Assembly: GCF_964355755.1 (NCBI RefSeq)
Contig: NC_092676.1
Coordinates: 17,936,871 to 18,000,870 of the forward strand
Length of the DNA: 64,000 nt
Direction of reading: 5' to 3'
Source of the DNA: Antedon mediterranea
Lineage: Eukaryota; Animalia; Echinodermata
Shown here: positions 24,601-64,000 of the stretch, piece after piece
Position numbering within the stretch: the first letter of the stretch is position 1
How the letters are laid out: every line of letters starts with the position of its first letter
Made by a program: the position numbers and the translations under genes
Notes under the pieces: generated by a model
Database searches by the model: none
What the model was told of the DNA's origin: nothing
The model's input: the letters and a program-made list of their open reading frames with translations, nothing else

Positions 24601-25682
24601 ATTAACGTGCGCAGAACCCATTAGTTGCTTCTGCGCATGTTTATTATGCTATAGTAACCATTTATGTAAAAACTGCTTACTATAGCACAATTGACATGCG
24701 CAGAGCCCATTATTCGTCTCTGCGCATGTTTATTATGCAATAGTAACCATTTATGTCAAAAAATAAAATGGTCGAAAACCGGCCATTTTTCGAAAATTTT
24801 CCTGTACAGGGATTTTTTCAATAAAATGGCCAATTTTCGACCCTTTTATTTTTCGATAAAACTGGTTACTAAAGCACAATTAACATGTGCAGAACCCATT
24901 AGTCGCTTCTGCGCATGTTTATTATGCTATAGTAACCATTTATGTCAAAACTGGTTACTATAGCACAATTAACACGCGCAGAACCCATTATTCGTCTCTG
25001 CGCATGTTTATTATGCAATAGTAACCATTTATGTCAAAAAATAAAATGGTCGCAAATCGGCCATTTTTCGAAAATTTCCCAATAGTATAGTAGAGGGATT
25101 TTTTTCCCAAAAATTGCCAATTTTCGACCCTTTTATTTTGTCGATAAAACTGGTTACTATAGCACAATTAACGTGCGCAGAACCCATTAGTCGCCTCTGC
25201 GCATGTTTATTATGCTATAGTAACCATTTATGTAAAAACTGGTCACTATAGCACAATTGACATGCGCAGAACCCATTATTCGTCTCTGCGCATGTTTATT
25301 ATGCAATAATAACAATTTATGTCAAAAAATAAACGGGTCGAAAATCGACCATTTTTCGAAAATTCCCCTGTACTAAAGTATAAGGATTTTTTTCCAAAAA
25401 ATGACCAATTTTCGACCCTTTTATTTTTCGATAAAACTGGTTACTATAGCACAATTAACATGCGTAGAACCCATTAGTCGGCTCTGAGCATGTTTATTAT
25501 GCTTTAGTAACCATTTATGTCAAAACTGGTTACTATAGCACAATTGACATGCGCAGAACCCATTAGTCCCTCTGCGCATGTTTATTATGCTTTAGTAACC
25601 ATTTATGTCAAAACTGGTTACTACAGCACAATTGACATGCGCAGAACCCATTAGTCCCTCTGCGCATGTTTATTATGCTATG
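12690..25682. repeat. ~13 kb satellite array of two palindromic monomers (89-bp A, ~100-110-bp B) with a 941-bp higher-order repeat
   Basis: A = AAAACTGGTTACTATAGCACAATTGACATGCGCAGAACCCATTATTCGTCTCTGCGCATGTTTATTATGCAATAGTAACCATTTATGTC. B is centred on CCCTGTACTATAGTACAGGG. The ORF track recurs at 13203/14144 and 16825/17766/18707 (941-bp period). Degenerate monomers flank the array at 10950-12175 and 25700-26090. Confidence 0.97.
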
Positions 25683-37900: not shown

Positions 37901-40900
37901 AGGCAGAGTGCGGAGATGAAGAACTGATCGTATGCTTCCATTGATTATCTTGGTCTGCCTTGAATATACTCAAAAAACAAAAAAAACAAGAATGCAGTGC
38001 AGTATATTTACCTGAGAATAAATATCTGGATAATATCGGACATAGACGATGGAATTTCTGGATGTAACTTATAAAAACCAACTTTAAACATGGCTGCCTC
38101 GGGTGAACCAAGCTAAAAAGAAAATAAACTATGCATTAAGTTGCGTTATTGATTTGCATATTGTATACAAATCAACATGGTAAAACATCGTCTAAACGAA
38201 CTTGAACAGGGTTTCGCACTACATAAGATTTCTATGGAATACATTTAGATATGTAGCGGACAATTGGAAAACTGTAGCATCAATAAATGAAGGAGAAAGT
38301 CCAAATTTAATTTACACAAATGAACAGGCTACTTTAAAAATAATACCTCAACAAATGGATGGAATACATTTAGATATGTAGCGGACAATTGGAAAACTGT
38401 AGCATCAATAAATGAAGGAGAAAGTCCAAATTTAATTTACACAAATGAACAGGCTACTTTAAAAATAATACCTCAACAAATGGTGGTTTACTTGTTGCCA
38501 TTTCAACAATTGTGCAGCCAAGAGACCAAATATCTGCCTAGAATATAAAAGCAAAAAAAATACAATAGGTCCATAAACCTGGAAAACAAATTGGGAGGTA
38601 CACAAGAACAACAAAGCAGAGGATTGATTTGCCTGTAAACTACTTGAACAATTTGGGCTAACATCCAAAAATGTTGTGATAGGATACGTTTCGACTTATT
38701 CTTTCTTTCCTAGAAACATTGTCTAGGACGTTTATTACATCAGGCCATGGCCCAAATACAACAATATAAATAATTTACAATACAATAAACTTATGTGTGT
38801 TAAAAAATGCTTTCTCTTTTTATAAGCAATGTAAATGAACAGTAGGGAAGTAACTGTTTTCTTAAATTATTTAATATCATGGACATTGTAATAAAAAATG
38901 AACCATATCTTCTACTAGATTCTTATTACAAACCTATAGTCCGATTTGGTCTGGAGACTATACTAAATGTATTGTAGATTACAGAGATTGTTTCATTATG
39001 TTTCATTGTACAAAAATATTATAATCTATTTCATAGTTTTATAAAATAATGTTATTTACTTACTGCTGCGCCATAACCACGAAGACCTTTGTCGATGACT
39101 TCAGGTGCCATGTATTGTAAAGTACCTTTAAATGTATTTAACATAGTGTAAATAAAATTACAAAATTGAGGTAGTCATACCACAGTTATGTCATTAAAAA
39201 AATTATCTGTGAGAGATAATCGCACAGAGCACTGGTAGCTTTCAGTGTCTCTGTCGGCAAATCTCTAAGCATTAATATCCCGTGTCCTATAACCTTGATT
39301 GAATTGACTCTCAAAAAAGGTAAATTTAACACGGTTTGTTGATGGAGCATTACAAGATTGTAATGTAAAATACATATATGGTACAACTACATTAACAGTG
39401 AATGCCTGAACAATTTTAAAAGCCATGATTGTAAGTTGAAATAGTCAAATTGTTTCCAAATCCAGTAAACCATTATGGGTTACTAACCTTTAAAAGAGTC
39501 TGCACTTGGATTTAAACCTGCTAACCTCTTTGACGTTCCAAAGTCTGATATTTTTAGCACCCCACTGTATGTGTTCACCAGGACATTATCCCCTTTGATG
39601 TCTCTGTGAACAATTTTTTGGTCATGCTGAAAATAGATAAAATAGTTATTATATATATATATATATATAGCAGACGGTCCGAGTTCGAGTCTCGGTTGGG
39701 GCAACTTTTTCTCATTTTCCCAGATTTCCTCATCTTTATCGTTTCAAAAATTAATTAAATAATTTTCAGTGTATCACCGGGCAGTTTGGAATTTATTTCT
39801 ATGCCTGTTGTGTTTATATTGTTACGTGTGACGAGAGTCAGGTGTCACATGTCACATGCAAATGAATCAAGTCGCCGGTGGTCAAGTGGACGAATCAGAA
39901 CGGAGCGTGGTGGTGCGCGGTATTTTGGAAAGCTGTGCTGGGTGTGTGACACAAAGAAGAGAGGGACTCAGGGCCAGCCAAGGACGCTTGCGTTTAGAAC
40001 TGTGCTTGAGACTGGAAGCGAGGCAGGACGATAAGAATGGGGAGGTTGTGATGTGTACGGATGGCCAGGCAAACCAACCACTCGGTATCATACGTATCTA
40101 TAATTGTGTTGTTATGTATTTTGTGCTTCGTGAAAGGAAATAAATGGAGCTCGTGCTCCTTGCATAATACTTTAAGTGTCGACTATTGTTTGTTCCAAGC
40201 CTCGTTGTTGCTATTTAGGTATTTCGGCCTAGGCCAAAAGTGGTCGTAACAATATATATATATATAAACACAGTAGGCAAAGAACATTAATTCTAAACCG
40301 CCCGGTGAATTAATGTTCTTTGCCTACTGTGTTTATATATATAAAAGTATCTCTTCGGAGATCACGCCTCGTGAATAAAAATACTGAAAGATGAGGGCGT
40401 ATCAATTTGATCTCTGTTGCGCGTACGTACAACTGAGGACTAGTGCTGTTCCGCCGTACCACGCCGAGAATGTTAAAGAGTCGCTATCCAATCGAGTTTG
40501 AACAATACCATGAAAGCCCCAGTGGTCTAATGGTTAGGGCAACTGCATTATCAAGCAGACGGTCCGAGTTCGAGTCTCGGTTGGGGCGACTTTTTCTCAT
40601 TCTCACAGATTTCCTCATCTTTATCGTTTCAAATTAATTAATTAAATTTCAGTATATTACCGGGCGGTTTAGAATTAATGTTCTTTGCCTGATTTATTTA
40701 TATATATTATATATATTTTATTTTTTAATTTCATACGCAGTTAAAAGTTTCATTTGAGGCTTAAGGAGGGAGTAGAAACAGTAGTAACTCTCAGTCTATC
40801 TGACTGGCACTACGTCAGATAATATGAGATTTATGAACCTTCTGGTTCACTTTTCACAGAAAACAATGTTTTCCGTGAAAGTCATGTGTTCAAAATTGAG

Positions 40901-43900
40901 TCAATGAGTAGTGTGCTGTACAGTAGTAGTAAATATGTAAAAGCATAAAGCTCTGTCTACACTATCAAACTAGTTTAACAAAAAAAGTGTGGTGTTCCCT
41001 AATAGGATAGTGGTATGCCTAAATATGGTAGTGATATGACATCATCGTTGAAACACTGGTTCTCATCAGATCACCAAAGTTAAGCAACGTTGGGCCCGGT
41101 TAGAGCTTGGAGGGGATACCATCTGGGAATACCGGGCGCTGTATATGGAGCTGGGGTCCCTTTAGGCATTTGAAATCAGCACTGCTGACTGTTATGGCAG
41201 CCCCTGCATCTAGCATCTGCCTAATCAAATCCAGTTTAGTTGGTTGCATAAAAAACATCCAAATTGAACAGCAGCACGTACCAACAGGGGTCTGGCTCAG
41301 ATGTATTGGCTTATGCCTCTCCTCTTGTTAAGCCTGACGGGACGAGAGACACCCTTGGTCAATGTTGGGACCAGCCAAAGGTGCTGTAAACAGTCCTGGC
41401 CTAGTCATCATTCAGGTGAATGTAAGACTATTACTGACAATGTCGTTTAAGACAAAGTCGGCCATATATATTACATCATCATGTCCATATATGGGCACAT
41501 AACATATTTTGTCACATAAAGTTTGATAGTGTGAACAAGGCTTTACACAAACAGAACATAATAAGATAAATACTGTTATTCAATATGTTATTATAAGATG
41601 ACCTGTTGTGATAGTAAGTTTTGAAACAATTTTTAAACTTCTTAGGTTAAATAATATATTTATATGTAAAAATGATTTTACCAGATACTCCAAGCCTTCT
41701 AGGATTTGTTTGGTATAAAAGGCAATTGTGTTTTCACTGTCCTTCAATGGCCCCCACTTTAACCTCAGCAGAGCTGATAAACTCCCTAACGACAAAGAAT
41801 TTACATTATCACAATAATTATTATTAAAATCACATATTTTTATATTTTATATTTTTTTTTATATAATATAAGGAAATTACTGTACATATTGGCAAATAAT
41901 AATAGGTTAATCACATGCTCGCGTATAAGCATAGAATTCTGACAAAAGACTGGCAAATCCATCATAGAATTGACTGTCAATACCAGAGTCTCTCAAAACC
42001 GGAAACTCTCCATACTTTTCTTGAGGTTCAAAAGGTCCCACATAATTGTTACCATTGAAAACACATTCTGAATACCAGACTTTCTGGAAAACTAGACATA
42101 TTTGGCAAGTCCAAAGGAGAGTTGACTTTATTCACCAAATTTTATACCAACGTTCCCTGGGACTATACTTGCTCATATACAGTAATAGCTTAGTAACATT
42201 TAGATATGTATAGCTAGCATACCTCCAGGCACTTGTTCCATCAATATTTTGAATACTTTTTCTTGGCTGACAGATCCCAGATATTTAACAATATTTTTGT
42301 GACTAAGTCTTGAATGAAGTAGAATTTCCTCATGCAGTGGTTGGACATCCCTTGAAAACAAAACCAAATTGAATTATTACAACCTGTACAAATATTACAA
42401 TAATTAAACATTGTAAAAACCCTTATTTCTTGTATTATATGAATGAATAACTGGTTGGGAGCAGAAATGCTACTTGACCAAACTCAGTACGGTATGATTT
42501 TAATAATTCAATTAAATAACTGTACAGTATAAGGTTTGCATGAAAATATATAGCATTTAATGTAAATACACTTAATAATTGTATGGAAAACAATGATTTG
42601 GTTTTAATAGGACACCCACTAAATTCAAAGCCACTGCAAATATATCATGTTGGTATAGCAAATTCAAGATATTGAAAAGCAGTATTGGTAGTTTTATGAT
42701 ATGAAAATCAGGAATCTTTTAAAAAGAACAATTTACAAATTATTTCTCATCAAAAAATATATCAAGAATTGTTTTCTATTATTTCTAACACTGGAAAAAA
42801 CACCTGTACTGAATTCTAGTTTGTATATATGTTGTGTAAAATAATTTCATACCATTCATTTGTAATTGGAACTTCTTTGACAGCGATTCGCACCTTTGTG
42901 TTCATATCCTTAGCTGCATATACCACACCATATGTACCTTTTCCTAATACTACCTTTTCACCATTTTTATCATATTCATACTCAAACTACAAGATAAAAA
43001 AATAACTCTTAAAGTTTCTTCAATCCAATTGTTATCACCTTTCTGCTGAATATTCATTTTTCCCATCAGATGCTATACTGCTTTTTCTGTAGGTCTGTTT
43101 CAGGTTTGAGATTTGTTGGTAGTGTGTTATTTGGGACCTATTAGTGCTTTTCAAAGGTATTTTAATTAATTTCATACGCATTCTAACAGCAACTAACTCG
43201 CCAATTACAGGATGGATAAACTATTTTATAATTTTATCATGCTTAAAAACTAAAAGTCTTATTTGAGGCTTTAGGGAGTGGAGTTGAAGGAGTTGTGAGT
43301 TTACAACCCTGGCACTAAGTCAGGATTGAACCCTGGAACTAAGTCAGGATTGAACCCTCGAACTAGGTCAGGATTAAACCCAGGATTGGAAGGCACGCAT
43401 CTTAATCACCAAGCTACAGCTATTGTGGTATAGAGTGCACACTGGTCTCCCTCTTAATTTAGTAAGGATATACTGGAGTAAAAGCTGATTGCTATATTTG
43501 TAGGTAGTTCTTCATCTTGCCTCAAAATATGTTCAAATAGTCCCAGCCTGGCTTGCCGCTAATCTACTGAAAAGGTTTTGTATTGCATCTCTCGTGGAGA
43601 TTTTGGTTTGCTATTTTAAGCGGTATCTATTATTAGTTCTATCATTGTTTTAGCTGTTTTCTGTAAAATGTCTCGTTTGAATATATAATGATATTTAGAA
43701 TGGGCCATGAAGAAATTCATTATCATAAGCTTACCGCCACAGGTTCAGAGTTCAAATCTGAGTCCCTTTCTGTTAAAAGATTATTCTTGTCTTCTAAATA
43801 ATCATCAATTAATCTCATGATCTCATCGTGAAATCTAAAAAGAATATATATTTATGGCTTCTAAAAAAGTCAATCTTATAAACTCACAAGTATTTAATTT

Positions 43901-46900
43901 ATGCGATATGAAGATTTATATAATGTTAAAAAAGTGGTCAAAATGCTGACAGTTCTTTTCAAATTGCTGAATTATTATAAAATAACACTTTGTTTTTGTT
44001 ATATTCTTATCATTTTTGTTTCTATAATATATTAATTATACTGAAAAATAATTATATGGTTTAAGTCTACACAATACAAGTTTTATTAAGAAAAAAATGT
44101 TTATTAATGGAAATGTGTTAAAGTTATAAATAATATGTATAAAAAGAGGAATGCAGTACAAGTAGAAATTAGGAGAAAAGATGAACACAAAAACAATGGA
44201 AAATGTAACATTTTATGCAACCAGATGATAACAACAAACATTGTTAATACACTAATATGTATAGTGTACTGAAATGAAAATGTGTTTAGAGAAAAATATA
44301 TTTAAAGAGATGAGATATATGCATGGAAATAAAAGTGGGATAACCCACATAAGATAATAATAAAACAAGTTCAGCAATATATAAAATCACATGTTATATA
44401 CCTTTGTCTTTGATTGGACGATGAAAAAAATAATTGAAAGTCATCGGAGTTGTGTTGAACATATATAAACAAACACCTATCATCTCGTTTGTACAAGCTA
44501 TCAAAACAAAATTGCAAAAACACATTTTTATTTAATTCTGTCAAAACTGACATATGCAAATTTAACTGTAGCAACATAGTGTATTTATGTAACATAAAAC
44601 ACTATAAATTGGACAACTTACATTTTGCTTTTAAAAGAATGCGTGTGTATTGGGCAAATTTAAAATGAGGAAAATAATTAGATAAAAAAAAAGATTTTTT
44701 AACAGATTGAAAAAAACAATCCTACCTGACACCTTTGATGGATGATATAAGGAACCTCCATTCATTAATTTTCTGAAACAATTACAATTTTTTTATTTTT
44801 TATAATTGGGTAAATATTTGAGAAAGAAATCTATGTTCAAATTAAAATGTATTGTTATTAAATACATGGTAATTGAAATTTATATTCCAAGGTTAAAAAC
44901 ATGATTTAAATAGTTACACGCAAATACATACAAAAAAGAATACAATATTAAAATATGTAAAAACAGTAAAAAGTTATGAGACCATATAGTGAAAGTCTAT
45001 GTTGTATGACAACAGTAAATTTAATTTTCCGCCAATACTAACCTTACAATTCGTGGGTTTTGCCACATGCCATAGCCTGACAGACTGAAAAGAAAAGGAG
45101 AACATAAACTTTGTTTCACACTAGTTGAATTATTTACATGCACTGTTCAACACTGGTCTCCAATTAACAAAAAAATACAATATCTTATTGACAAGGTGCA
45201 GATTACCACAAATCTTGAATGCTTTTGGCCACAGTTTTCAAGAATACTTAAATGAGCAAATATTGCACCAGTCAGTGTGATTGAACTTTGCTTGGAAACA
45301 GAGTTATTTTCTTCTTACTAATGAATTTACCAATAAGATGAAAACAAAGACAGTACCTTTTCATCCTCTTCTTCATTAATAGTGATAAAACTTGGCTTCA
45401 TGACTTTAGATGGTTCCAAAACAAGCACAGGGAATATCACTTTAGAGTTACTGTCCTTAGTTGTCTCAACAAAGAACTCCAGCCAGAAGTTAAATAACTG
45501 CAATGCAATATTAACAAATTATTGTTATGTTAAAATCCTAGGAGCCCCACACTCGAATTACAAGTACAAAATGGCATCATATACACACTTCTGTACAGGT
45601 GTAAATACTCGACAAGTCTAAAACTCTATCTACACTATCAAACTAGTTTGACAAAAAAAGTGTGATGTACCCAACTATGGTAGTGATATGCCCAAATATA
45701 GTGATATGACATCATCATGTCCAAATATGGGCACATCACATATTTTGTCACAAAAAGTTTGATAGTATAGACAGAGCTTTTAAACACAACTTATAGATTA
45801 TACTCATCTCTGGTCTTTATCTAGTGTTCTAATATAGTGGTCAACTAATAATATATTTAGTGCTTATTGCACAATGCTTCACATTATTACCCCAGTCATT
45901 TTTTGGATCTAACACATATGGAAACATACTCCCATAATGCAGCTAGTAATCAGCGCAATTGTGTTCTGACTTTACCAGGAATTAGGAATACTGTATTTAT
46001 ACCGTTTATTGTTCAGGGGGGTTTTTAGGGGGCATTTAATCAGGGGAGGCATTTATTTATATAAATAGAAATGTGTTGTAATACAATAGTGTGTATTATA
46101 TATTTTGCAGGGCGTTTATTCAAGCAAAAAATAAATGTCCTGGGGTGTTTATTCGAGGGGAGGCGTTTATTACAAATGATGTTCTATGGAAAGGTTTTTA
46201 TTCGAGAAGGGTTATTCAAATAAATACGGTAGCTGAATTAATGTAATTGGAAGGTTCTTGAAAGTGCATTTTACCTCATGTTCAGGCTTAGGGTTCTCAA
46301 CTGGGATTGGTATAACCTTTGTAATCATCTGAATATTGCCAAGAGTTGACTTCAAGTACCTACAACAAATATATCGAAAATTGTTTTTATCTGGATTTAT
46401 ATTTAGATATCTGTATACAATTCCTTATGTTAAACCAGTAGATAATAATATAACGTTTACCTCAATAGCATTGTCTCATGAATTATATTATTATTATTAT
46501 TATTATCGTTGGTAAATTTGAAATAAACATTTTTTTTTGCTTTTTGTTTTCTTAAAGCCTATTTTCCATCAGTAGAATTTATTCACGCAAATCCAATGTT
46601 TCGCATAAAAAAAAAAATTAAAACGTAAAATAAATGGGGAGATCAAACCTGGTTACAACTTGTAAGTTGTCCATATATGGGCACATCACATCTTTTTGTC
46701 ACATAAAGTTTGATAGTGTACTAACTAATAAAGTGATCAAGTTGCTGGTGAACTATATTGTTGCAAATTTACCATGTTGGTGGCTTCAGGTTGAACATAC
46801 ACTCGGCAGCTTGTACAGCTTTTGAGAAGTCTCCAGCCAAGACACTAATCTCAAAGAATGTTGCAACATCCCAGTAATCTTGCAATGACATCAGACTTCC

Positions 46901-49900
46901 CTTCTTACCAAGAAGCATGTTCAGTGTCACACCTATGTATGAAGACAACAAGTAAATGAAAAAAATAAAATGGGAGAAAAAACATTGATCTAAAGCATCT
47001 AGGCTTATGTCTTTTATTTCAACTTGACTCAATCATACCAATATAGAAAATTGATGGGCAATTGGCAGAACCTTGTTCAGTTAAAATTAAAAGGTAATTC
47101 TACATTCTATCTATTGCATTTAATGATTTTTCTTTTTAACAATTGTGAATTTCAATCCATGTATTAGAAATGCCACAAACATACCGTATGTATTCAAATA
47201 AATGCGGTTGTGTAATATTTTGTGTAATATGGTGTGTGTATAATAAAATAAATACCCCTAAATATAAACAAGTACAACACAATTAATATCAAAAAGTGAT
47301 AAAATACAGTAAAAATTGTATCAAAATGCTTGGTAAATTGTTGATCATGGCAGTCAATGGATTTATACTACGATAGCAATGTGTTGTAATACAAAATTGT
47401 GTATATGATGCATGTCACATGTAATTTAATTATTTCGTAACGCTATTCGAGGGGGGAAGGGGGGCGGGTGTTTAGTGTTGATTCCAAATGATGTTATATG
47501 GAGGGCATTTATTTGAGGGTGGCGTTCATTCAAAGCGGTGCATTCATTTGAATAAACATGGTACCTATTTTCTGCAACTCTTGTGATTTACTGAAATCTT
47601 CACCAGACAGCACGAGTAGAGTTGCAAGATTGATGCCAGCATACTCATTGGGATGCACTTCAAAGCCTTTTCTGTACCTGCAACACACAGAAATGCAACA
47701 ATTATTATTTCAACTCTTTTTAGGATTTTTTTTTGTTGGAATGTGTACAAAAAGGTGCATATTAGCTTTATAATTTTGATTTTAAATTTCCTACACATCT
47801 AACAGCGAGTACCAACTAGCCAATTACAGGATGGATAAATTATTTAATAATTTATCATGCTAAGTCTCATTTGAGGCTTAGGGAGTGAAGTTGAAAGAGC
47901 TCTGAGTTATAACCCTGGCACTAGGTCTGGATTGAACCCTGGACCTTGGAATTAGAAGGCAAGCATGTTAACCACTTAGCTATAATATGCCATCTTCTGC
48001 AAACTATTATCAATTAACAACTGATACCCAATCTATGGACAAACATCTTTTACTTCTCTGCAACCTGAATGTGTGCCAAACATGTTGGGCTATCTCAGAA
48101 AATTGGTCTAAAAATCACAATGTTCTAGTATAGCTTAAACACATCAAGAGAATTAGAAAGTGTCCTGGTGGGAATGCGTTATAAGATTAACTTAGACATG
48201 CATTCTTAATTTCTTTACGGAAACTTTAGGACATAGAAAAGACAAAGAGAACAAAAAAGAATTATAAATCTAGTGTAAAAACAAAATGAAAGAGTGTTAA
48301 AATCTATTTACCAGTGTATAGCCTTATCTCTGCTATCAGTATTTTCATACATACTTTCTGTGTACAGATCTTTGTAGATCCTTCCAGCTAAGCACAACAT
48401 ATCTGGAACTTGATTCTCCTTTTTCTCCAATGCTTCGTTGATGATCTTTAAAGCAGTCGCACGATCACCATTTTTGTTCCGCCTGAAAAATTTCGATAAA
48501 AAAAATTAGTAAATGATTATTTGGTATTAAAGGTCAAAGGTATTAACTGCGCGTAGCTACAAGGCACATAATGATAAGAAAAGTCGCTAATGATGTACAC
48601 GCAATCTGGGGTTCTCAACAGCTACTGCTAAAAACAAACAAAAAACAAATTCAATTTTAAAAAGTAGTTTTAAAAACACCCATTAGATTTAAGGTGTTCC
48701 ATTATTCACCTAAGCAGAGGACCACCAGTGACACATACTAGGCTTTATATCTGGCCTTCAAGATTACTTGTAAATTACTATCAGGCCTACATTATAAAAC
48801 TGTTGAGTACCCCTGCCTTAAATAAATATAACGTTACCTGTTAAGAGCAAACACATGAAGGTGTATTATAGCTGGCTTGTCTGTAATGTTGTTATTTGAC
48901 AGTTGTTCTATAGCTTTCACTAGTTTCACCATTGCATTATAATCCTAACAACCAAATAGTCAATGTTGTCAATATAATTTTTTTAAAAACCTGAATTAGA
49001 TTACAACACTCATAATATATGACTCTTAGAGCCCGTTTATACAACATGCTAAATCAACACGCATCGACGTTGGTGTGTTGTATAAAACAGAAATGGATTC
49101 CGCGTAATTACTAAACCACCTGGAAAGGCTACTTGAAAAGGCTACTTGAGAACCGTCCAAATTTGGCCGGTTGGTGAGCTGAAGTAGCCTTGTTAAGTAG
49201 CCACAGTGGACAAGTTGCCCTTTATTATAGCAGCAAACGTTTGGCTGTGACTGACCTTCCTATTCATAACACGGCAGTTGACATTCATGCATGAACGGCT
49301 CAGTTTATGGGACTGACCTTCGTATGTGAAAACACGAATATACATAGGTGTGTAAAGTAAGAAGGGTGTTGTATAAACACAGCCTTAAAGTCTCGCCACA
49401 AAAGCCTACTTACCTGTAAACATATTCATTGTTAAACTTATGCCCATGTGAACGTAACGCAACGATGTAGGTGCAATGCAAGCGAGTTGACCAATCACAA
49501 GATATGGTCCATGACTGGTCAGATTATTTGCGGTGCGCTTACATCCTTGCGTTGCGTTCCCAGTGGAGACCAAGCTTCACAGGCAGCTGAAAGAAAGTTA
49601 AATTGCTCTAATGTAGGTACAGTAAGGTCAACCGGGGTGGAATCTTACCTGTATTTCTCTGTAAGATAGCAAAAGCTGATGGACAATATCACCTGTGAGC
49701 AAGAGCTGATCATCCATTCGCTTCTTTAAAACTGATAATTCCTACAAAATGATGAACAAATAATACAATTAAAAAATAACATTGATTATAAAAAATAATG
49801 CAATTTGCAATGATGCTCCTATTGAGCTGAGTTGAATAGAACTTTGAAAGGAAATATTCTGCCCATTCAACGCATACAAAACATTCATTTTTGTTCTGTA

Positions 49901-52647
49901 TTCCTTTGTTTAAGTAATCTGCCATTCCATCTAGAATCAAATGTCACAAACTAGACCATGCTACACATGGGTGCTCAGACTTTTAATCACATTGCAAATT
50001 ATTTTTATGAGTGAGATATGTTATATATGACTTATGTTTAATATTCTGTAATGTGAAAAATGGGAGGCTTCTTATCCAAATACAGTTGAATTCATACTAA
50101 GGGGACACCTTTGGGGCCCAACAAAATGTTTCAATATGCCCATATGAAGGATGTCTCCTGAATAGGGTTAGATGCAGTGTTAAAGCATGTATGCTCTCTT
50201 AATAGGAGAGTGCTCTGAATAAAGTAGATTTACTAGTAGTGTTTGTTAGCACAAATCGAAAGCGTCCTCTTCCACCCATCTTCCGAATCCCTCTTTGCGA
50301 CGAATTATAGTTCCTTGAGTTTTTTACTTCAGCGAAATTGGTAGTTCAAATTGTTTTTACTTTTTGCGAAGCAAAAAATGCGCAGCAAATCAGAGCTCTG
50401 GAAATGAGTTTTGACACGTTCATGAGCACTCATTTGAATCAAACAAACGATAAGCATAAAAATCACAGCTATTCGCTCTTTGTAGTGGATTGGAAAAGGT
50501 AGCACGTTTTTTTTTCTCTGCGAAACGTTGGATGGACGCAAACAAATTGGCTTTAGGAGGAGTTCTACTGTCTATTCGTTATTTCCTATAATACAAGTGG
50601 TTTAGGTCTTTCTTATCTCCGTAATCTTTACTGTGATACAGATAGGTGTAGTTTGAAGGAAATCTTAGTGAAAGAAGATCACTCATGTTCTGTAAATAAA
50701 TACATATGTGTTTAATGATATCAATATTTTACCTTGGCCAGCTGTTCACCTTTATATCTCCTTCTTGCTTCTCTAATACCTTTAAGTAAAAGCTCCTTTG
50801 CACATTCTCTATAGAATAAAATTTTTTTTTTTAAATAATTCGTATTGTATGAAATATTATAATAGACATAATTTGGGTATTAGGCATATTGAAATTTCAT
50901 TTTCAAAGGTCCATGCTAAATCTGTTGTACTATAACCAGACAAAAATCCTGAAGAAATGTATGAAAAGTTGAAGTAAGTATAACAACTTTAGGAATCTCA
51001 AATGCACCACCATTTGAACTATAGTGACCTAATTGATTTCAAGTATAAATTAAACCACTTTATGATTTGATCTATTTTAAACAGTCTCCAAACCACTATA
51101 AACATGTCTATTGTTTGTCTTTGCTAGCATAATTGACATTGAGCCACTCAACCCAACTTAGGAATGGTAAATTTAATGTACAGAATAGTTATAAAAATAA
51201 TGTGTTAGCTTCTGTATTCAATCACCGTAGCAATTTGTTTAAGACGCAATTGTACAGACTTTTTACATTACTACACAAAAATAAACATGAATACATTTTT
51301 ACCTGTTTGTTACTTGCATTTCTTCGTAAACAGATTTTAAACGACTATACAATGGTGGGCAAATCTTTGATAATGAATCACCTGATCCTTTGACAGGTTT
51401 GAAGACACAGGCCATATCACACACATAACACTGGCCATCAGGGTCAAGCTTGTAAGGGAAGAAGTGGTAGCCAGATTCCAAACATGAATTCTGTAAATAG
51501 AAACAAATTAAAAATGATAATATATAATAAAGAGAGAAAGAGTTGGAAGAGGAAGGCTTACAGAAACATAGTACTTTTTAGGCCAAAGCTATGGGCGATT
51601 AGTGGTGTGGGTGGCTAAATCCGCACCTGAAAGCAATATGTGGATCACTTTCCATGTGGAATTCTGGGCCAACCTGCAAAAAGTCCAGTCTTGTTCATTT
51701 AACCTTGGGTGTGATATCTATACATTCATTTGCATGGTTATTAGGAAATGTTTACCCTTTTTCTTAATTTCTAATACAACCTGTTGTTACAGTGTTATTT
51801 CTTTTATGATGAAAAATAAAAAAAAAATTTTCATTTAAAAGTGCCCTCTATTGTGTTGGACTCATTGTACTATGATGGATTAAAATAATAGAATTTGAAA
51901 TTGTTAAAGATGTATTGTCCCCCAAAAAATTAAATCAGACTTTGAATATTTTATAGTTTAATAAAGTTAATCACTTCCATAGGAAAAAACACAAAAAATA
52001 ATGTTTTAACTTATAAAACGAAAAAATAAATAGTTAAATTCAACCAAAAACCCATTAGCTGGCAGCTATTTTTTGCTTTAAATGACAGTTTTTTTCAGGT
52101 AAATACATTTTTTCAAACTAATTATTGTCAAAGTGGATTATTATATGTTACATTAAAATGGCATATTCAACAAAAACTTTGTTACCAAGTATTTTTTCAG
52201 GGGGACAATAAATCTGTAAACAATCCATAGAGGTTCTATACCAGTACTATAGCTAAAATGAAAATATCAATATTTAATGTAGTAATACATTAAAATATAA
52301 CACAAAACAATAAATCAACTTAGTCAACTTACTGTCAACGATGTTACAGTTTCAGGGTCGGAATCATTTTTATCATGGTACAAAACAATATTCTCATTTT
52401 TTCCAAAGCTTTCTCGCACTCCGAGATGATAAAATAAAGTTGCCTGTTGAGTTTTTATGGACATGTCCACGATAACCAGATCAGCATCATAAAATATGTC
52501 TAACACGCTCGTCTGTCCAAAATCTAGGTGCTGAAAGGCCACTCGCTTCAGGTCAATGTCCGCATTATGAGTTTTTAATTTTTCAACATTTTCAAACGCT
52601 TTTTGACAAGCTTCAGTATTATTACTGAATATGCAAGCCACTCTCAT
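28916..52647 (-). CDS. MAP3K15: ASK-family MAP kinase kinase kinase (MAP3K5/MAP3K15-like), 35 coding exons, 1271 aa
   Basis: Exons 5'->3': 52647-52333, 51490-51303, 50808-50733, 49741-49649, 48944-48838, 48482-48312, 47677-47565, 46932-46773, 46359-46275, 45497-45357, 45084-45043, 44772-44726, 44497-44402, 43834-43735, 42986-42853, 42350-42223, 41785-41682, 39626-39488, 39125-39064, 38537-38472, 38112-38012, 37464-37331, 36499-36409, 35269-35219, 34041-33921, 33664-33596, 33096-33018, 32517-32438, 32082-31971, 31375-31150, 30779-30687, 30479-30442, 29958-29885, 29714-29638, 29018-28916. Total 3816 nt in frame. Motifs [90 protein letters not shown] and a C-terminal SAM. Likely co-ortholog of vertebrate ASK1/2/3, so the symbol is approximate. 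Confidence 0.95.
29042..29201. mobile_element. Tc1/mariner-type MITE (TA-CAGTA.AACCC...GG...ACTG family)
   Basis: Starts TACAGTACAACCC with internal GGGGACAC motifs and ends TTAATAGGGGTCAGACTG; related copies at about 27197-27356 and 50080-50235. Confidence 0.55.
29988..30145 (-). mobile_element. Truncated copy of the tRNA-containing (TA)n-associated repeat
   Basis: Reverse complement matches 40548-40700 (TATCAAGCAGA..GGGTTTGAATCTCGGTTGGGACGACTTTTT); flanked by TA tracts. Confidence 0.7.
31745..31880. mobile_element. MITE family with TIR AAGCTCTGTCTACACTATCAAACT (possibly Harbinger-like)
   Basis: Terminal inverted repeats; other copies at 40948-41544 (interrupted by a SINE), 45620-45780 and partial 46665-46720. 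Confidence 0.7.
34259..34304 (+). ncRNA. Minimal hammerhead ribozyme motif (two apparent stem substitutions)
   Basis: CTGCA-CTGACGA-GATCT-AATA-AGATG-GAAA-AAGTACTGTC-TGCAG: CUGACGA and GAAA core, stem I CTGCA/TGCAG, GUC triplet, near-palindromic stem III. Confidence 0.65.
34330..34371 (+). ncRNA. Minimal hammerhead ribozyme motif (Penelope type, palindromic stem III)
   Basis: TTGCA-CTGATGA-A-GGGC-TAGTGTT-GCCC-GAAAG-CTC-TGC. An inverted copy at 34494-34538 has GAAA changed to CAAA. Confidence 0.7.
34773..34905 (-). ncRNA. Box H/ACA sno/scaRNA candidate, copy 1 (intronic, sense to MAP3K)
   Basis: Hairpin CCGTGT/ACACGG with upper ACCTT/AAGGT, H box ATATTA, hairpin GAGAT/ATCTC with upper ACAGAG-CACTG/CAGTG-CTCTGT, then ACA plus 3 nt; about 133 nt. 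Confidence 0.75.
35410..36375. repeat. 21-bp CpG-rich minisatellite (about 45 copies, a few 23-bp variants)
   Basis: Unit GATGCTTCACTCTCATTGCGC inside a MAP3K intron; source of the periodic ORFs. Confidence 0.97.
38234..38483. repeat. Exact 125-bp tandem duplication overlapping a MAP3K donor site
   Basis: 38234-38358 equals 38359-38483. Confidence 0.9.
39205..39337 (-). ncRNA. Box H/ACA sno/scaRNA candidate, copy 2
   Basis: Matches 34773-34905 with two substitutions at unpaired positions; homology stops just after the ACA box. Confidence 0.75.
39668..39819 (+). mobile_element. 5'-truncated copy of the tRNA-containing repeat
   Basis: AGCAGACGGTCCGAGTTCGAGTCTCGGTTGGGGC... matches 40553-40690; preceded by (TA)n. 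Confidence 0.75.
39820..40251 (+). mobile_element. Solo LTR (432 bp, probably Gypsy class)
   Basis: TGTTACG...CGTAACA inverted ends, 4-bp target duplication ATAT, GC-rich body, AATAAA near 40139. Confidence 0.8.
40516..40588 (+). pseudogene. tRNA-like sequence inside a repeat (SINE head or tRNA pseudogene)
   Basis: Acceptor GCCCCAG/TTGGGGC, A box TGGTCTAATGG, perfect T arm CCGAG-TTCGAGT-CTCGG; irregular anticodon arm (ACTGCATTATCAAGCAGA); three copies in the window share the 3' flank. Confidence 0.7.
41047..41472 (+). mobile_element. 5S rRNA-derived SINE (SINE3 type) inserted in a MITE
   Basis: 41047-41143 matches 5S rRNA lacking its first ~17 nt (GTTGAAACACTGGTTCTCATCAGATCACCAAAGTTAAGCAACG...GGGAATACCGGGCGCTGTA), followed by ~330 bp of non-5S body; 8-bp target duplication ACATCATC. 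Confidence 0.8.
43165..43402 (-). mobile_element. tRNA-derived SINE with a 24-bp B-box segment triplicated
   Basis: Homologous to 47795-47985 and 40725-40822; minus strand TAGCTTGGTGATTAAG A-box, then three GGGTTCAATCCTGACTTAG units. Confidence 0.7.
47183..47563. mobile_element. Tc1/mariner-type MITE
   Basis: TA-CCGTATGTATTCAAATAAATGC ... GCATTCATTTGAATAAACATGG-TA; related element at about 45990-46231. Confidence 0.6.
47795..47985 (-). mobile_element. tRNA-derived SINE
   Basis: Minus strand TAGCTAAGTGGTTAA (A box) and GGGTTCAATCC (B box); body shared with 43165-43402. Confidence 0.7.
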
Positions 52648-52892
52648 ATTGAATGTTTTGTTTTAATGTTTGATAGTTTAATTCATTTGATGTCTAAATG
52701 CTGCACATTCTAAAAACAAAATATAAGAAATTAGATAGAATAGGTAAACTGGATCAATTGCTGTTGAGTGAATACAGGGCTTCCCCTTTCCCTACAACGA
52801 AATCCCTACACAAATAGGCCTACCATTAATTAATATATATTAGGCTTAGATAGTATCAAATTTAGGCCTACACTCACTTCCCCACCCCTCTT

Positions 52893-54700
52893 GGCCTGTC
52901 ACACCAAAATCAGTCCGGGCCAAAATCGGTCCGGCGGACCAGTTTTGGCTGCCAAAATCAGTCCGGGGGACCATTTATGGCTGCCAAAACCTGTCCGGCC
53001 GGACCAATTTTGGCCGCCAAAACTGGTCCGGCCTGGATAAAATCGGTCCGGGCAGTAGGACTGTTTTTGGCCGCCAAATATGGTCCGGTCTTACAAATAT
53101 ATGGTGCGCAAAATGAGTCATAATGTATTATATCATTTTTAAAAAATGTATTAGTCATTATATTGAAAACTATGGGTTTTATTTGTTATTTTAATATTAT
53201 AAATTAATCCTGTTTTTTTAATTATCATTATTAGTAGTAACTCATCAGTACTAATAGGCTTTTTGTATACAATATGTATCTCTGCCTGTTTTTAATCCAT
53301 ATTGTTCTTTTTTAACATCTTCGTTTCCCCATGATGTTAAAAACAATTTAATTTATTAATTATTAATGGTTAATCAATCAATATATCAATTCAATACAAT
53401 TATTATAAAACAATTATCCAATATTGATTAGGCTGAGGAAGGAAAAAGGCCTCAATCATAAATAAAATCTAGCTGGCAATATCAGCGTCTCATACCCGTT
53501 CATGTGAGTGTGTGGCAGGCCGAAATATGAGTGAACACCTAAGTCATGTTTTTAGATAAAATACATTTATTTATAGTATTTATCCGACAAGATAACTTAC
53601 TAATATATATCATGGGATATTTTTCGGCGCTAGTTCCGTTTCGCACCTGTTTTTATTTCGACTTCCTTTTGACTCCAAATTGTTAAGCAACTTATTGTGA
53701 ATACCACACCTTAAAATTGGGCCTCATAAGTACTTTTATGAAGAAGAATCACATAAAAAGTAACAAATAAATCCTTAAATTGATGATTTTACAGACATGT
53801 TTCTCGCATACCGTTCGCCGCGAATTTAGCATACTCGAAGTTCAATATTTTCCTTTCTATGGAGCGCCAAAAGAGCAACAACAATAGATGGTTAAAACCT
53901 CAGTGGAATGCGTCTTCTTTTAATGCATTTATTATTGAAATACACAAACGTGTAATTGTAATATATTTTGTCAAATAAAAATGCTGTAACATTTTACTGC
54001 TAATAATTTGCTGTTTTCAAATAGCAACCAACCTAAGAGTAAGACTAAGACTTAAAGAGGCATATTATTTAGATTAAGGTATACCCCTACAGTACATGTA
54101 ATATGATGATGAATTTGTCGATTTTCATTCCTAACTAAAAGCTCCTGAAAAAAACATGTACAGTATCAACAGTAATATTTTTGTTGCATTGACAAAATAT
54201 GATAAAATTGAACGTAATTTTCACCAATAAATGCATTAAATATACACAATTTACTGAGTTTTTAGCCCTCTATGATTGCTCTTTTGGCGCTCCATAGAAA
54301 CAACAACATTGAACATCGAGTGTGCGAAATTCACGAACCGATGTGCGAGAAACACGTCTGTAAATTCATCAATTTAAAGGATTTATTTTTTACTTTTTGT
54401 GTGATCTCCTTCGTAAAAGTATTAAAGAGGCTTAATTCTAAGGTGTGGTACTCACGATAAAGTTACTTAACCAATTTTGAGTCGAAATAAACGACAGGTG
54501 CGAAACGGAACTAGCGCCTATTTTTCTAGCCATAAACAACTTAAAACAGCATCATAGGCCTAGTAATTCAATTAAAATCAACAGAAGAAAAGCCCGGACC
54601 GATTTTGGCAGTGGCGGACTGCTTTTGGCCACAATTTTAGAGCCAAAACTGGTCCGGCCGGACCGATTTTGGCCCCGGACCATATTTATTGTGACAGGCC
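52893..54700. mobile_element. Non-autonomous TIR DNA transposon with GGTCCGGCCGGACC subterminal repeats
   Basis: Ends GGCCTGTCACA.. / ..TGTGACAGGCC; arrays of CCAAAATCGGTCCGG motifs at both ends; lies upstream of the first MAP3K coding exon, in its presumed 5'UTR intron. Confidence 0.75.
53626..54518. mobile_element. Nested foldback element with ~260-bp TIRs and 8-bp TSD (MULE- or Merlin-like)
   Basis: GGCGCTAGTTCCGTTTCGCACCTG ... CAGGTGCGAAACGGAACTAGCGCC; TATTTTTC duplicated on both sides. Confidence 0.85.
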
Positions 54701-57056: not shown

Positions 57057-57692
57057 AATACTGAAATCTTAGTACAGAATTACAATACTGAAATCTTAGT
57101 ACAGAATTAAAATACTGAAATCTTAGTACAGAATTAAAATACTGAAATCTGAGATAGAATTAAAATACTGAAATCTGAGTATAGAATTAAAATACTGAAA
57201 TCTTAGTACAGAATTAAAATACTGAAATCTGAGATAGAATTAAAATAATGAAATCTGAGATAGAATTAAAATACTGAAATCTGAGATAGAATTAAAATAC
57301 TGAAATCTGAGATAGAATTAAAATACTGAAATCTGAGAAAGAATTAAAATACTGCAATCTGAGATAGAATTAAAATACTGAAATCTGAGATAGAATTAAA
57401 ATACTGAAATCTGAGATAGAATTAAAATACTGAAATCTGAGATAATTAAAATACTGAAATCTGAGATAGAAATAAAATACTGAAATCTGAGATAGAATTA
57501 AAATACTGAAATCTGAGATAGAATTAAAATACTGAAATCTGAGATAATTAAAATACTGAAATCTGAGATAGAATTAAAATACTGAAATCTGAGATAGAAT
57601 TAAAATACTGAAATCTGAGATAGAATTAAAATACTGAAATCTGAGATAGAATTAAAATACTGAAATCTGAGATAGAATTAAAATACTGAAAT
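57057..57692. repeat. 26-27-bp minisatellite (about 24 copies)
   Basis: Unit AATTAAAATACTGAAATCTGAGATAG. Confidence 0.95.
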
Positions 57693-59671: not shown

Positions 59672-62600
59672 TTAACGATTTGTTTTTTCGCTTGAACATG
59701 TATATATGATCGTGTACAGATACGGATTAACTGCCGAGTTGATCGGTAAAATGAAGGTTGCTGCCCAAACATATATTTCTGCAGGGATATCCCAATGTTT
59801 AGTTTCCGAGCAAATTCCCATTAAAATGATGGGAAACCAGCAACAAAAATCTGTACCAATTATAAACACTAGCTTCCGTGCAATTCGCAACTGTTCTTCA
59901 AAGCTTTTCCTTCTATTAACAGTCGCTGATGATCTTTTCACAGAAAAAAATATTGTGAGATAACTGACGACCATGACCAAGAAACCGAAACCGTTAAATG
60001 CAATGAAGATAGCAGTGGCATACTCCCAGCCTGGTAAATGGCTTCGAGTTAGCGGTAACGGAAGGCAGACACTCTGTTTACCATAGTAGTTCTGTCCAAA
60101 GTAAGGCAGGTCGATAAAGCTCAGTTTATTTGCAGCTACCGGTAAGAAACTGATAGCAGCAATAACAACCCAAGCAATGACGATGACTATTTTGCATGTT
60201 TTACGACTGAGACGTCTAGTGTTAAAAGGACTAACAATGTTTACAGCCCGGTCGACGCTCATAACCATCAACGTAAACACCGAGCATTCACTGGAAAGAG
60301 TAGAAATAGCACCTGCAAAACTGCAAGTGAAACTACTTTTCCAATATTCTAGAACTTCCGAGTATCTACCTCTATAGTGAATATCAGCCCCTGCAATAAT
60401 TAGCAGATACATTGCCATAAGTAGATCAGAGATGGCAAGACTGGAGATCAGCATGGAATCAACAGTTTTCTCTTTATTGCAACACCTTGATATGAGAACA
60501 AGTGCATTGCCAATAATGGAGGAAACACCAATTACGAGCATCAACACCCGAAGCGATTTCCTTTTTAGTAAATCTTGGCATGATGCGAAAGCATCAGTGG
60601 GTTCACAGATCTCAATGTCACCAACAACACAACACAGATGGAAAAAATCTGAATAACTGAATGAAAAGAAATAGGATAGTTATATATTCATAATTGATAA
60701 TTGTAAAGTGTAAATAGCTAATTGCTAATTTCAAAAAGTGTAAATAGCTAATTTCAAAAAGTGTAAATAGCTAATTTCTAATTTAAAAAAATGTAATATT
60801 AGCCGTTTTTTCTTGCCAGCATGTATTTATTATATGGAATTCTTTTTTTATATAGAATACAATTTTCCTTGTTTCAGCAGTACAGCTGGGTCAACATTTT
60901 CTATCATGACTCGTCTTTACAGACACATTCCATTATTGTTCCGGCCTTTTCACTGAGATTGAGAAGTTCACACGTATGAATTCTTCTGATAACTTTTTAA
61001 CCACTTGTTACATTTGAAAACAAAAGTGAATCTGTGAAATTGGTACTAAATGGCATTTAAATACAAAATCAAAGGGGGACAACAGATCACACCACCCTAC
61101 ATACAGCCATTTGCATTCATAATGTAAAATAAATTTACTTACAACTCTGTTAAATTTACCAACTCTTTAAAAGTCTTTTCTTCATAATCTTTCAAGTTGT
61201 TGTATGTTAGGTTTCTGTAGGATAATAAATTCAGAATGATCATATCCATTTAATAATAACTTTAAATTCACATGTCATGAGGAAACTTTCTGAATGATTG
61301 AAATCAAAACAGTACTGGGTTTGGTTTACTAGCATTCCTGCTCCCAAAAGTCATCCATTCATAGAAGCACTGATGAAGAAAGTCTATCCATGGTGGCCAT
61401 AGAATGGTCCTCAAACATACTTTGGCTTTAGTTGATAGAAGTTTGAAACATTTTATTAGAAATAGAGTATATGTAAGTTATAAACTTTGTGGCAATGACA
61501 ATGTTTACAAAAAGCTGAATGTGCATTAGAGGCAAGAATACAAGCAGGTGTCTTACAATACAGATTATGAACTTACAGAATTAAAAGTGATGAAGCAAAT
61601 GGAGAAAATGCACCATCCTCTATGTTAGTTATAGAGTTGTTCTGTAACTGTCTGTTAACAAATTAACAACAAAAATTATGATCCTAAATTTAGTTATCTG
61701 AAGATGATCAACTGCAATTGCCTTTATTGGTATTTACTGCTCTGTCACAGTACTATATTATTCAATGTAATCAACTAAAGTACATGTTTTAAAGATACAG
61801 TATACTGTCCCACTGTAAAAATGAATTTACTATTAATCTTTGTTAAACATGCCATTCTAATGTCACATAATAGTAATCATCAGTCATTGAAATTTTAAAA
61901 TAAATAACAATTATTACTATCAACTATGATTAATGAATTAAGAGTATAACACAATACGTACAAAACATACTTACAATATTTGCAAATTGTTCAATCCATC
62001 AAATATATCAGCTGGTAAATTACTAATTTGGTTGTTTTCCAAAAATCTGCAAAAATAAAAATGAACAACATTTAAAGTGAAGTTTGACTATTTTATATTT
62101 TACCCATGGTTTCACTATTTTGTTTTCTTTATTTTTTTTTAACATAATTTTTTATCCAACTTTTAAAATTTATGTATGATCTTGTTTAGAGAAAGTATAT
62201 AAAAAGAAAGTTGAAAAATTAATGTTTTTATTTAATATGATTAACTTAAATTAATCATTTCACAATAATTTTACAAATGTTATAATAAATTGCAATTATT
62301 GCTATTCATCATCATCACAAACAGGGCACTTAAGACTTCTCCAATCAGAGAGATTATTAGCCAAAGTGTACATAGACTTATTTATTTTTTCTTTTTGCAT
62401 CATTTTCTATAATTTTTATCCATGTGGTTCTAGGTTGTTCTCTTCTGTCATTGATTCAGATAGAGCTCCTTGTGCTGGGATATCATAGTCTAGACTAAGA
62501 AGGTGTCCACACCATGTCAAGCGTCTTCTCTTTATAACTCTGTTCCATTTTTCCTCATTTGTGCTGTTATATAAATCTATATTTGTTATTATATTAGACC

Positions 62601-63588
62601 ATCTGGAATAATTAATGTTTAAGTTAAATGCCTTCAGTTGATTATGTTGCTATCAACTATGATTAATGAATTAAGAGTATAACACAATACGTACAAAACA
62701 TACTTACAATCTTTGCAAATTGTTCAATCCATCAAATATATCAGCTGGTAAATTACTAATTTGGTTGCCCCACAAAGATCTGCAAAAATAAAAAATGAAC
62801 AACATTTACAAGTGAAGTTTGACTACTTTATATTTTACCCATGGTTTCACTATTTTGTTATATTTAGTTTATTTTAACATAATTTAATAAGCAAAAGTAC
62901 ATATAAGGGCACTATACTGTATTTCATTAGTGATACATATATCAATCATATTGATTGAATTATTAGTGTCTATGATTCATGCACCTTTCTGACCGTTGAT
63001 CATTCACTAGAGCACTGTTAATATGTCCATTAATACAACATCTGTATCATTTTTTTTAAAGCCAACACATTAAAAATATTTCATTTATGTAAAAATAATG
63101 TTTCAAATTTATAGCTTTTGTTTAATAATAACACAATAAGTACAAAACATACTTACAAGTCTTGCAAATTGTTCAATCCATCAAATATATCAGCTGGTAA
63201 ATTTCGAATTTCATTACCATTCAACCATCTGAAAAAAAATTAAAAATTAACCACATTTAAAAGTGAAATTTGTCTATTTTATCACCCATGCTTTTACTAA
63301 ATTTGTTTTCCTTCGTTTATTTTAACATATTTTTTAAGGCAAATTTGTATGATAATTTACGTATGATAATTTTGTTCAGTTCTTTTTGTTATTATATTAG
63401 GCCATCTGGAAAGATTAATGTTTAAGTTAAATGCCTTCAGTTGATTATGTTGCTATCAACTATGATTAATGAATTGTGAGTAATAATAATGCAATAAGTA
63501 CAAAACATATACTTACAAGACTTGCAAATTGTTCAATCCATCAAATATATCAGCTGGTAAATTACTAATTTGGTTGTCGTACAAATAT
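59672..63588 (-). CDS. LRR-containing GPCR, RXFP/GRL101-like (partial, 5' end beyond window)
   Basis: LRR exons 63588-63517, 63228-63157, 62779-62708, 62046-61975 (72 nt each), 61651-61577 (75 nt), 61214-61143 (72 nt), all phase 2-2, then hinge+7TM exon 60656-59672 (YSDFFHLCC..C.P.D.FASCQDLL, LAISDLLM, STLSSECSVF, CLPLP, TDFCCWFPI, PINSAVNPYLYT). Confidence 0.9.
62306..62605 (-). mobile_element. 3' fragment of an RTE-clade LINE within the duplicated LRR intron
   Basis: Minus-strand translation RWSNIITNIDLY...IKRRRLTWCGHLL...PRTTWIK...DWR with a (GAT)n tail; partial copies at about 63385-63410 and 63845-63920. Confidence 0.65.
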
Positions 63589-64000
63589 CTGCAAAAATAA
63601 TATAGAACATTTAAAAGTGAAGTTTGTATACTTTATACTACCTATGGTTTCACTATTTTGATTTCTTTAGTTTATTTTAACATAATTTTGTATCCAACTT
63701 TTAAAATTTATGTTTGATCTTGTTTAGGGAAAGTATATAAAAAGAAAGTTGAAAAATTAATGTTTTTATTTAATATGATTAACTTAAATTAATCATTTCA
63801 CAATAATTTTACAAATGTTATAATAAATTGCAATTATTGCTATTCATCATCATCACAAACAGAGCACTTAAGATTTCTCCAATCAGAGAGATTATTAGCC
63901 AAAGTGTAAATAGACTTATTAGGTGATCATTTAGAATAAAATGATCACCTATTGTTATTGTACAAAATCTTTATTGTTATTATTATTCTTCTTTCTGTAC

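Follow-up and report, generated by a model that had tools for sequence, protein, structure and literature searches.

Introduction

G-protein-coupled receptors that contain leucine-rich repeats (LGRs) are known as conserved hormone receptors, and one leucine-rich repeat (LRR) per exon is the usual layout of their genes. In the variable lymphocyte receptors (VLRs) of lampreys and hagfish, which cytidine deaminases assemble clonally in somatic cells, donor cassettes are copied into an incomplete germline gene, and the product has a stalk with a glycosylphosphatidylinositol anchor or a single-pass tail and no seven-transmembrane (7TM) domain. Here we describe the 3′ part of an LRR G-protein-coupled receptor (GPCR) gene of the feather star Antedon mediterranea, located in a 64,000-nucleotide stretch of assembly GCF_964355755.1 (contig NC_092676.1, positions 17,936,871 to 18,000,870; hereafter the window). 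We consider it probable that its LRR array is reshuffled in the germline, that its contact positions are kept different by selection, and that the receptor acts as a variable sensor of foreign macromolecules.

A comparable design is published for the brown-algal ROCO LRR-GTPases (Zambounis et al. 2012, PMC3341825; Teng et al. 2024, PMC11378527), which makes the Antedon array less unusual than an initial annotation of the window, made from its letters alone, had implied. According to these reports, the two systems share one 24-residue LRR per 72-nt phase-2 exon, remodelling of the array among recent paralogues that are near-identical in their other domains, and variation on the concave face. 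They differ in that the ROCO protein is an intracellular algal GTPase whereas the Antedon protein is a rhodopsin-class GPCR of the animal cell surface. ROCO loci are reported to carry inverted and dead intronic exons, none of which was found in the 64-kb Antedon window, and positive selection was reported there from PAML analysis of hundreds of exons, whereas the Antedon case is a comparison with the intron rate only.

Among animal receptors, RXFP1/2 and LGR3/LGR4 (type C1) share the LRR-hinge-7TM layout; unlike the Antedon clade, they occur as single copies, carry an LDLa module and have an array that is fixed. GRL101-type LGRs and the LDLa-bearing receptors of crinoids share its 7TM domain and hinge, and the clade of the gene is nested among the crinoid ones; the early crinoid receptors have LDLa and few LRRs, whereas in the derived clade the LRR array is longer and homogenised. 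Veenstra 2021 (PMC8286064) gives one GRL101 orthologue per ambulacrarian, proposes GRL101 as an insulin-like growth factor (IGF) receptor and, in its account of these orthologues, does not mention an expanded crinoid clade. The LDLRR-GPCRs of Ciona (PMC2396169) are described as a lineage-specific expansion of relaxin-receptor-like 7TM proteins with a remodelled ectodomain, and this set retained LDLa and lost LRRs, the reverse of the Antedon clade. Expression in sensory tentacles is described for GRL101-like genes of Acanthaster (PMC6267866) and Charonia (PMC13403566). The accounts of these genes in the Ciona, Acanthaster and Charonia papers describe neither cassette arrays nor concave variation. 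Our search of the published literature, supplements excluded, found no account of the clade or of such arrays in crinoids or in GRL101-derived receptors; supplementary gene-family tables could name the expansion.

Results

Architecture of the locus

The exons of the receptor gene in the window and the repeated intron blocks around them are as follows.

63517-63588, minus strand: LRR cassette exon c1, 72 nt, phase 2-2; lacking in RefSeq model XP_071956901.1
63157-63228, minus strand: LRR cassette exon c2, 72 nt, phase 2-2; lacking in XP_071956901.1
62708-62779, minus strand: LRR cassette exon c3, 72 nt, phase 2-2; present in P0117 (XP_071956901.1)
61975-62046, minus strand: LRR cassette exon c4, 72 nt, phase 2-2; present in P0117
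61577-61651, minus strand: single-copy LRR exon e5, 75 nt, phase 2-2; peptide the same as in sister model P0174
61143-61214, minus strand: last LRR exon e6, single-copy, 72 nt, phase 2-2; a contig of run X5 joins it to the 7TM exon
59672-60656, minus strand: exon of the cysteine-rich hinge and intronless rhodopsin-class 7TM domain with stop, 985 nt; 100% identical to P0117
62089-62382: intron block 5′ of c4 (gene orientation), with a copy 5′ of c1; 95% identical to 63627-63920
63627-63920: intron block 5′ of c1, copy of 62089-62382
62582-62679: intron block 3′ of c3, with a copy 3′ of c1 (63385-63482); 5 of 98 bases differ

The seven exons from c1 to the 7TM exon read as a single open frame of 472 codons and a stop, and all six introns are GT-AG. 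Each of c1–c4 is a 72-nt unit bounded by AG and GT, with one base of a codon at its start and two at its end (phase 2-2), so the positions and translations given for the four exons in the initial annotation are borne out. That annotation also reported an identical core of 39 nt. The core is indeed identical in all four cassettes, over 42 nt, and over 55–56 nt in c1, c3 and c4 alone (c2 is the most divergent, at 11–14 nt from the other three); its identity is limited to the window's four cassettes, as core letters differ in contigs of the public sequencing runs X1, X5 and X8. The flanking introns had been called close copies, and 12 of 292 aligned bases differ between 62089-62382 and 63627-63920. 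The duplicated cassette blocks, including intron DNA, are 81–94% identical over 216–476 nt. Parts of the region recur with 0–1 substitutions in DNA contigs of public runs, and one 745-nt contig carries two cassettes; on this evidence we rejected faulty assembly as the source of the repeats.

The 7TM exon matches Pfam 7tm_1 (E = 6.5e-32), and c1 alone falls under the cut-off for LRR_8 (E = 0.007). A scan for phase-2 LRR exons on both strands of the window returned only c1–c4, e5 and e6, and a further LRR exon was not found between 63589 and 64000; we infer that the N-terminal exons lie past the window end. The A. mediterranea RefSeq model P0117 (source name GRL101-like) includes only c3 and c4 of the four cassettes. 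Its start was rejected as the true N-terminus, as it maps to intron DNA at 62949-62920, and so were the first 17 residues of the sister model P0174 (XP_071956026.1), which match intron DNA at 62548-62498. Neither array is therefore known to its N-terminus, and both RefSeq annotations appear to truncate the array, so that the family would be under-counted in current annotation. The missing N-terminal half was sought among proteins shorter than 360 amino acids, and of 47 matches, with a best identity of 63%, none was named Antedon.

The initial annotation had seen a VLR-like pattern in these cassettes, and the resemblance extends to 24-residue repeats, a constant backbone and variation at the same class of positions on the concave face, with which VLRs bind antigen (PMC4731796). 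VLR chains are also among the Protein Data Bank (PDB) matches of the protein (2o6q_A, E = 9e-37). VLRs are described as diversified in lymphocytes by a conversion-like process (PMC4731796), and the cassettes could likewise serve as donors from which single cells complete an unfinished germline gene. We regard such somatic assembly as extremely improbable here. The cassettes are intact germline exons, spliced and in frame with the receptor; the 64-kb window yielded no donor that is inverted, truncated, broken or intronic; and the output is a 7TM protein. Two defining features of a VLR, an incomplete germline gene with donors that are not exons and a stalk without a 7TM domain, are thus absent from the Antedon gene as far as the window shows it. 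The likeness is one of pattern only and is not supported as a mechanism.

Variation on the concave face

Variation was measured in 15 cassettes, four from the window and 11 from P0174. In standard LRR geometry, positions x2, x3, x5, x7, x8 and x10 line the concave face. Mean entropy is 1.79 bits at these six positions, falling to 0.24 bits at the remaining nine x positions and to 0 in the framework; the variable x residues named in the initial annotation stand as listed, and the variation lies at concave-face positions. In the AlphaFold model of P0174 (mean predicted local distance difference test score, pLDDT, 84; one repeat, residues 110-132, below 50) the strand falls on x3-L4-x5, which gives direct support for x3 and x5. 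The intron is positioned in the L4 codon, and each strand is therefore made of the back of one exon and the front of the next, so the model agrees with the earlier proposal that the intron cuts the variable strand. Among 54 LRR-GPCRs with at least six repeats, the top five in the contrast between backbone and concave positions all belong to the Antedon clade of this gene, each with a homogenised backbone of its own. Other members of the crinoid clade, P0176, P0179, P0008, P0005 and P0002, likewise combine a homogenised LRR backbone peculiar to each protein with concave positions that vary.

Concave codons are more diverged than the aligned flanking intron in all six cassette pairs (the pairs are not independent), with p<0.05 in five of six when short flanks are used and in six of six with long flanks. 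The contrast is strongest between c3 and c4, where 7 of 18 concave bases differ compared with 4 of 118 intron bases (p = 5e-5) and 0 of 51 other coding bases, and where six of the seven concave differences fall within a 12-nt island with identical flanks. In each pair the 51 non-concave coding bases hold either 0 or 3 differences. Drift alone would not surpass the intron rate at concave codons, and the excess would fit old variants shielded from homogenisation as well as repeated positive selection. This comparison with the intron rate is distinct from a formal result on the ratio of non-synonymous to synonymous substitution rates (dN/dS), the check that had been proposed for the cassettes. 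By the Nei–Gojobori method over whole exons, the non-synonymous proportion (pN) exceeds the synonymous proportion (pS) only among c1, c3 and c4 and is lower in the pairs with c2, all on few synonymous sites.

Probable reshuffling between near-identical receptors

From e5 onward, P0174 and P0117 are distinguished by 4 of 377 residues. Upstream, P0174 has 11 cassettes that share the window's backbone but depart from the window array in number, order and content; its ten internal strands include none of the window's three. The 90% cluster of P0117 contains three further models, including P0174 and P0175. Across the 15 cassettes, identical exon fronts are found with differing backs, and vice versa. 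Among the five variable front sites, 10 of 10 pairs are compatible, whereas front sites are incompatible with x20, x2 and x3 in 12 of 15 pairs, and near sites are more compatible than far ones (p = 0.009, all 362,880 permutations). Such reassortment of fronts and backs would be the expected trace of crossovers in the shared core, and the cassettes are likely reshuffled by germline unequal crossover and gene conversion. The absence of the window strands from P0174, together with this reassortment, supports the earlier suggestion that reshuffling creates new strands. A three-LRR block is repeated nearly exactly in P0005, another member of the crinoid clade.

P0117 and P0174 could be either paralogues or haplotypes. 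Four sites separate them, and the listed contigs of run X1 carry the P0174 letter at all four of these and those of X5 at two of four; given these letters, the two models could be haplotypes, and the RNA evidence described below applies to the subfamily and not to the locus.

Cassette junctions in other sequencing runs

Nine public runs contain the stretch, none of them recorded as RNA, and four of the nine were compared; X5 is taken to be RNA by guess. The last intron is bridged, from 60655 to 61143, by an X5 contig that continues for 177 nt, which by arithmetic should comprise e6, e5 and 29 nt of a cassette. On c1, three X5 contigs (read by hand) show an exon start directly after an exon end at the predicted splice sites, with no intron between. 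The junctions are Leu-Trp to Tyr-Leu-Tyr (depth 13.7), Gln-Arg to Tyr-Leu-His (depth 8.1) and Gln-Arg to Trp-Leu-Asn (depth 3.2, low enough for an error). The Leu-Trp exon end is found with a GT donor in the DNA run X1 and also in P0174. At the level of the subfamily, these head-to-tail junctions in a probable RNA run bear out the splicing of the cassettes into the message.

The two reference arrays, both of them incomplete, have 13 internal junctions, none of which is among these three; the three fit exon skipping or unseen cassettes equally. Diversity could thus arise mainly at the isoform level, from one long array with Dscam- or ROCO-like exon skipping, possibly per cell. The exons are symmetric, one X5 exon end (Gln-Arg-Leu) is joined to two different exon starts, at depths of 8.1 and 3.2, and alternative splicing of such exons is reported for the brown-algal ROCOs (PMC11378527). 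However, the Gln-Arg-Leu end occurs in 4 of 15 known cassettes, so that two genomic junctions suffice without skipping, and contigs cannot reveal isoforms. Skipping as the main mechanism strikes us as quite improbable; it is compatible with germline reshuffling, to which it would add.

Over window positions 60412-60678, runs X1 and X2 also contain a second copy of the 7TM sequence, which has 27 changes in 185 nt and for which P0173 is a candidate.

A derived crinoid clade of GRL101-like receptors

The protein has the features of an LGR: both 7tm_1 and LRR_8 of Pfam score over the cut-off on P0117 and P0174, and the hinge, the structural model and the fold search add to this. RXFP1 is the best PDB sequence match (7tmw_R, E = 6e-86), and the fold search returns LGR4, FSHR, TSHR and LHCGR, the best being LGR4 and the glycoprotein-hormone receptors. 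With the 7TM exon matching P0117 in full, the initial reading of an LRR ectodomain on a GRL101/RXFP-type 7TM is upheld. The phase-1 intron in transmembrane helix 2, described as a conserved feature of RXFP/LGR3 (type C1) genes (PMC11863921), is not present in the Antedon gene, in which hinge and 7TM domain lie on one 985-nt exon. A tentative placement with GRL101 (type C2) comes from its nesting among crinoid LDLa-bearing GRL101-like proteins, these labels being names from the source databases.

A FastTree phylogeny was built from 101 of 188 fetched proteins, those covering at least 250 residues of the 7TM query, and included all named proteins and 12 unnamed ones; P0173, other short proteins, Lymnaea GRL101 and validated type C1 references were left out. 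The gene sits in a crinoid clade with local support of 1.0, within which four LDLa-bearing GRL101-like receptors (P0003, P0004, P0006 and P0007) branch first. The remaining derived clade (support 0.997) holds 29 protein models of A. mediterranea and 11 of A. japonica, some of them maybe isoforms or haplotype duplicates. A profile-free search of 1.84 billion representatives gained no closer relative.

LDLa calls were taken from Pfam scans, cruder pattern counts being ignored as they miss known LDLa repeats. The four early-branching receptors have LDLa repeats and few LRRs. By contrast, no LDLa hit was obtained in the six derived-clade members scanned with Pfam, three of which (P0002, P0122 and P0193) have complete-looking N-termini, and multiple N-terminal LDLa modules are probably not present in the gene described here. 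P0003, P0004 and P0006 have additional domains of CUB, SRCR or C-type lectin type, in combinations that differ among them, which points to ectodomain shuffling across the wider family.

The family context bears on a different explanation, a fixed surface that serves a single conserved ligand, for instance an insulin-related peptide, with the contact residues of each repeat under purifying selection and the rest homogenised by conversion. The RXFP1 match and the proposal of GRL101 as an IGF receptor (PMC8286064) lend it some weight, as do synonymous differences linked to concave codons, which suggest old variants escaping conversion. Yet models with 99% identity in the 7TM domain are unlike in how many repeats they have and in what order, and the three relatives with complete-looking N-termini give no LDLa hit. 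We therefore hold a fixed ligand surface to be very unlikely.

Proposed mechanism and ligand

The first two steps of the mechanism we propose are visible in the sequences. Each repeat is a symmetric phase-2 exon, a symmetry by which gain, loss and reordering preserve the frame. The duplicated blocks extend into the flanking introns, and cassette number, order and content are altered in a model that is 99% identical in hinge and 7TM domain. The site incompatibilities suggest that the shared core is then a place of crossover, as are the homologous introns, by which any front (x5, x7, x8, x10) could be paired with any back (x2, x3). With a strand predicted to consist of the back of one exon and the front of the next, both kinds of event would yield new contact strands. 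Differences at the contact codons would be favoured or protected by selection while the remainder is homogenised, and, by analogy with the LGR family, a ligand on the concave face would signal via the hinge to a G protein.

Several points weigh against germline reshuffling under selection. The recombination test used the amino acids of the predicted model P0174 with the window cassettes, and not P0174 DNA. Of the X5 junctions, one is shallow enough to be spurious, and all three may stem from cassettes unseen in the incomplete reference arrays; they speak for the subfamily. In the concave codons pN is about equal to pS (higher in three of six pairs, on only 2–4 synonymous sites and with multi-base codon changes), although the same codons exceed intron divergence, so that the proposed dN/dS check points both ways. 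Concave positions are more variable than other x positions in 45 of the 54 LRR-GPCRs with at least six repeats and, in a second comparison, in 65 of 82 proteins. The unnamed metagenome LRR proteins P0327 and P0331 have a similar pattern, which is thus not unique to the crinoid family. Convex positions vary too: 8 of 16 non-synonymous variant rows lie at P15-x21, on the convex side, among them Asp>His at 63542 (x20, in the core), found in contigs of X1 (n=14), X5 (n=7) and X8 (n=20). The table's 16 non-synonymous to 8 synonymous rows, each row a single change, do not amount to a selection test, since divergent exon fronts are clipped and so under-reported.

The equality of pN and pS, the direction of the contrast in other LRR-GPCRs and the convex variation in other runs would all be accommodated by neutral turnover, in which the array would be homogenised by tandem exon duplication and gene conversion, exposed positions would drift under relaxed constraint, and the concave pattern would only reflect where change is tolerated. 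Many family models are also short or without LRRs, as in birth-and-death decay, an appearance that bad annotation would share. But neutral sites are expected to diverge at the intron rate, which the concave bases of c3 and c4 far exceed while their other coding bases are unchanged; an island of changes between identical flanks is likewise poorly accounted for; and frame and splice sites are intact in all four exons. Neutral turnover is accordingly an improbable account, and germline reshuffling with selection on the contact positions is the reading we retain.

As to what such a sensor would bind, microbial or parasite surfaces are the leading candidate, held tentatively and at somewhat less than an even chance. 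Environmental or conspecific chemical cues are possible and less likely, self/non-self or gamete recognition is unlikely, and a hormone decidedly so. An immune role is slightly favoured over a chemosensory one, and here too a point stands against it: the published descriptions tie GRL101-like genes to sensory tentacles in starfish (PMC6267866) and snail (PMC13403566), not to immunity. More speculatively, and in our view rather doubtfully, dozens of crinoid GPCRs might form a polymorphic repertoire in which inherited individual arrays and exon skipping give a partly combinatorial immune or self-recognition system acting via G proteins.

The clade has apparently dropped LDLa, expanded and made of its LRR array a recombining sensor with a variable contact face. 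An invertebrate deuterostome would thereby have arrived at receptor diversity by way of a GPCR. The clade is a candidate family for how crinoids discriminate variable ligands, and the discrete cassettes with a near-constant 7TM domain make the question testable.

Other features of the window

The downstream neighbour of the receptor is an ASK/MAP3K5-type kinase gene, with exons at 37250-52662 on the minus strand and the following domain matches.

52324-52659, minus strand: DRHyd-ASK and MAP3K_TRAF_bd
46769-47029, minus strand: MAP3K_TRAF_bd
39483-39740, minus strand: kinase domain

Exon-like frames at 2-313, 3605-3853 and 9441-9704 on the plus strand resemble what we take to be an acyl-CoA thioesterase 9-type gene; the two that were scanned gave no Pfam hit. 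A 12.7-kb satellite (12940-25679) is built of 89-nt units in higher-order blocks of 278-375 nt. Tandem arrays at 6677-7593, 35413-36371 and 57057-57692 have periods of ~71, 21 and 26 nt, and the 21-nt array has long low-complexity open frames. Nested inverted repeats at 53692-54460 and 52917-54675, 74-91% complementary, resemble the ends of small DNA transposons.

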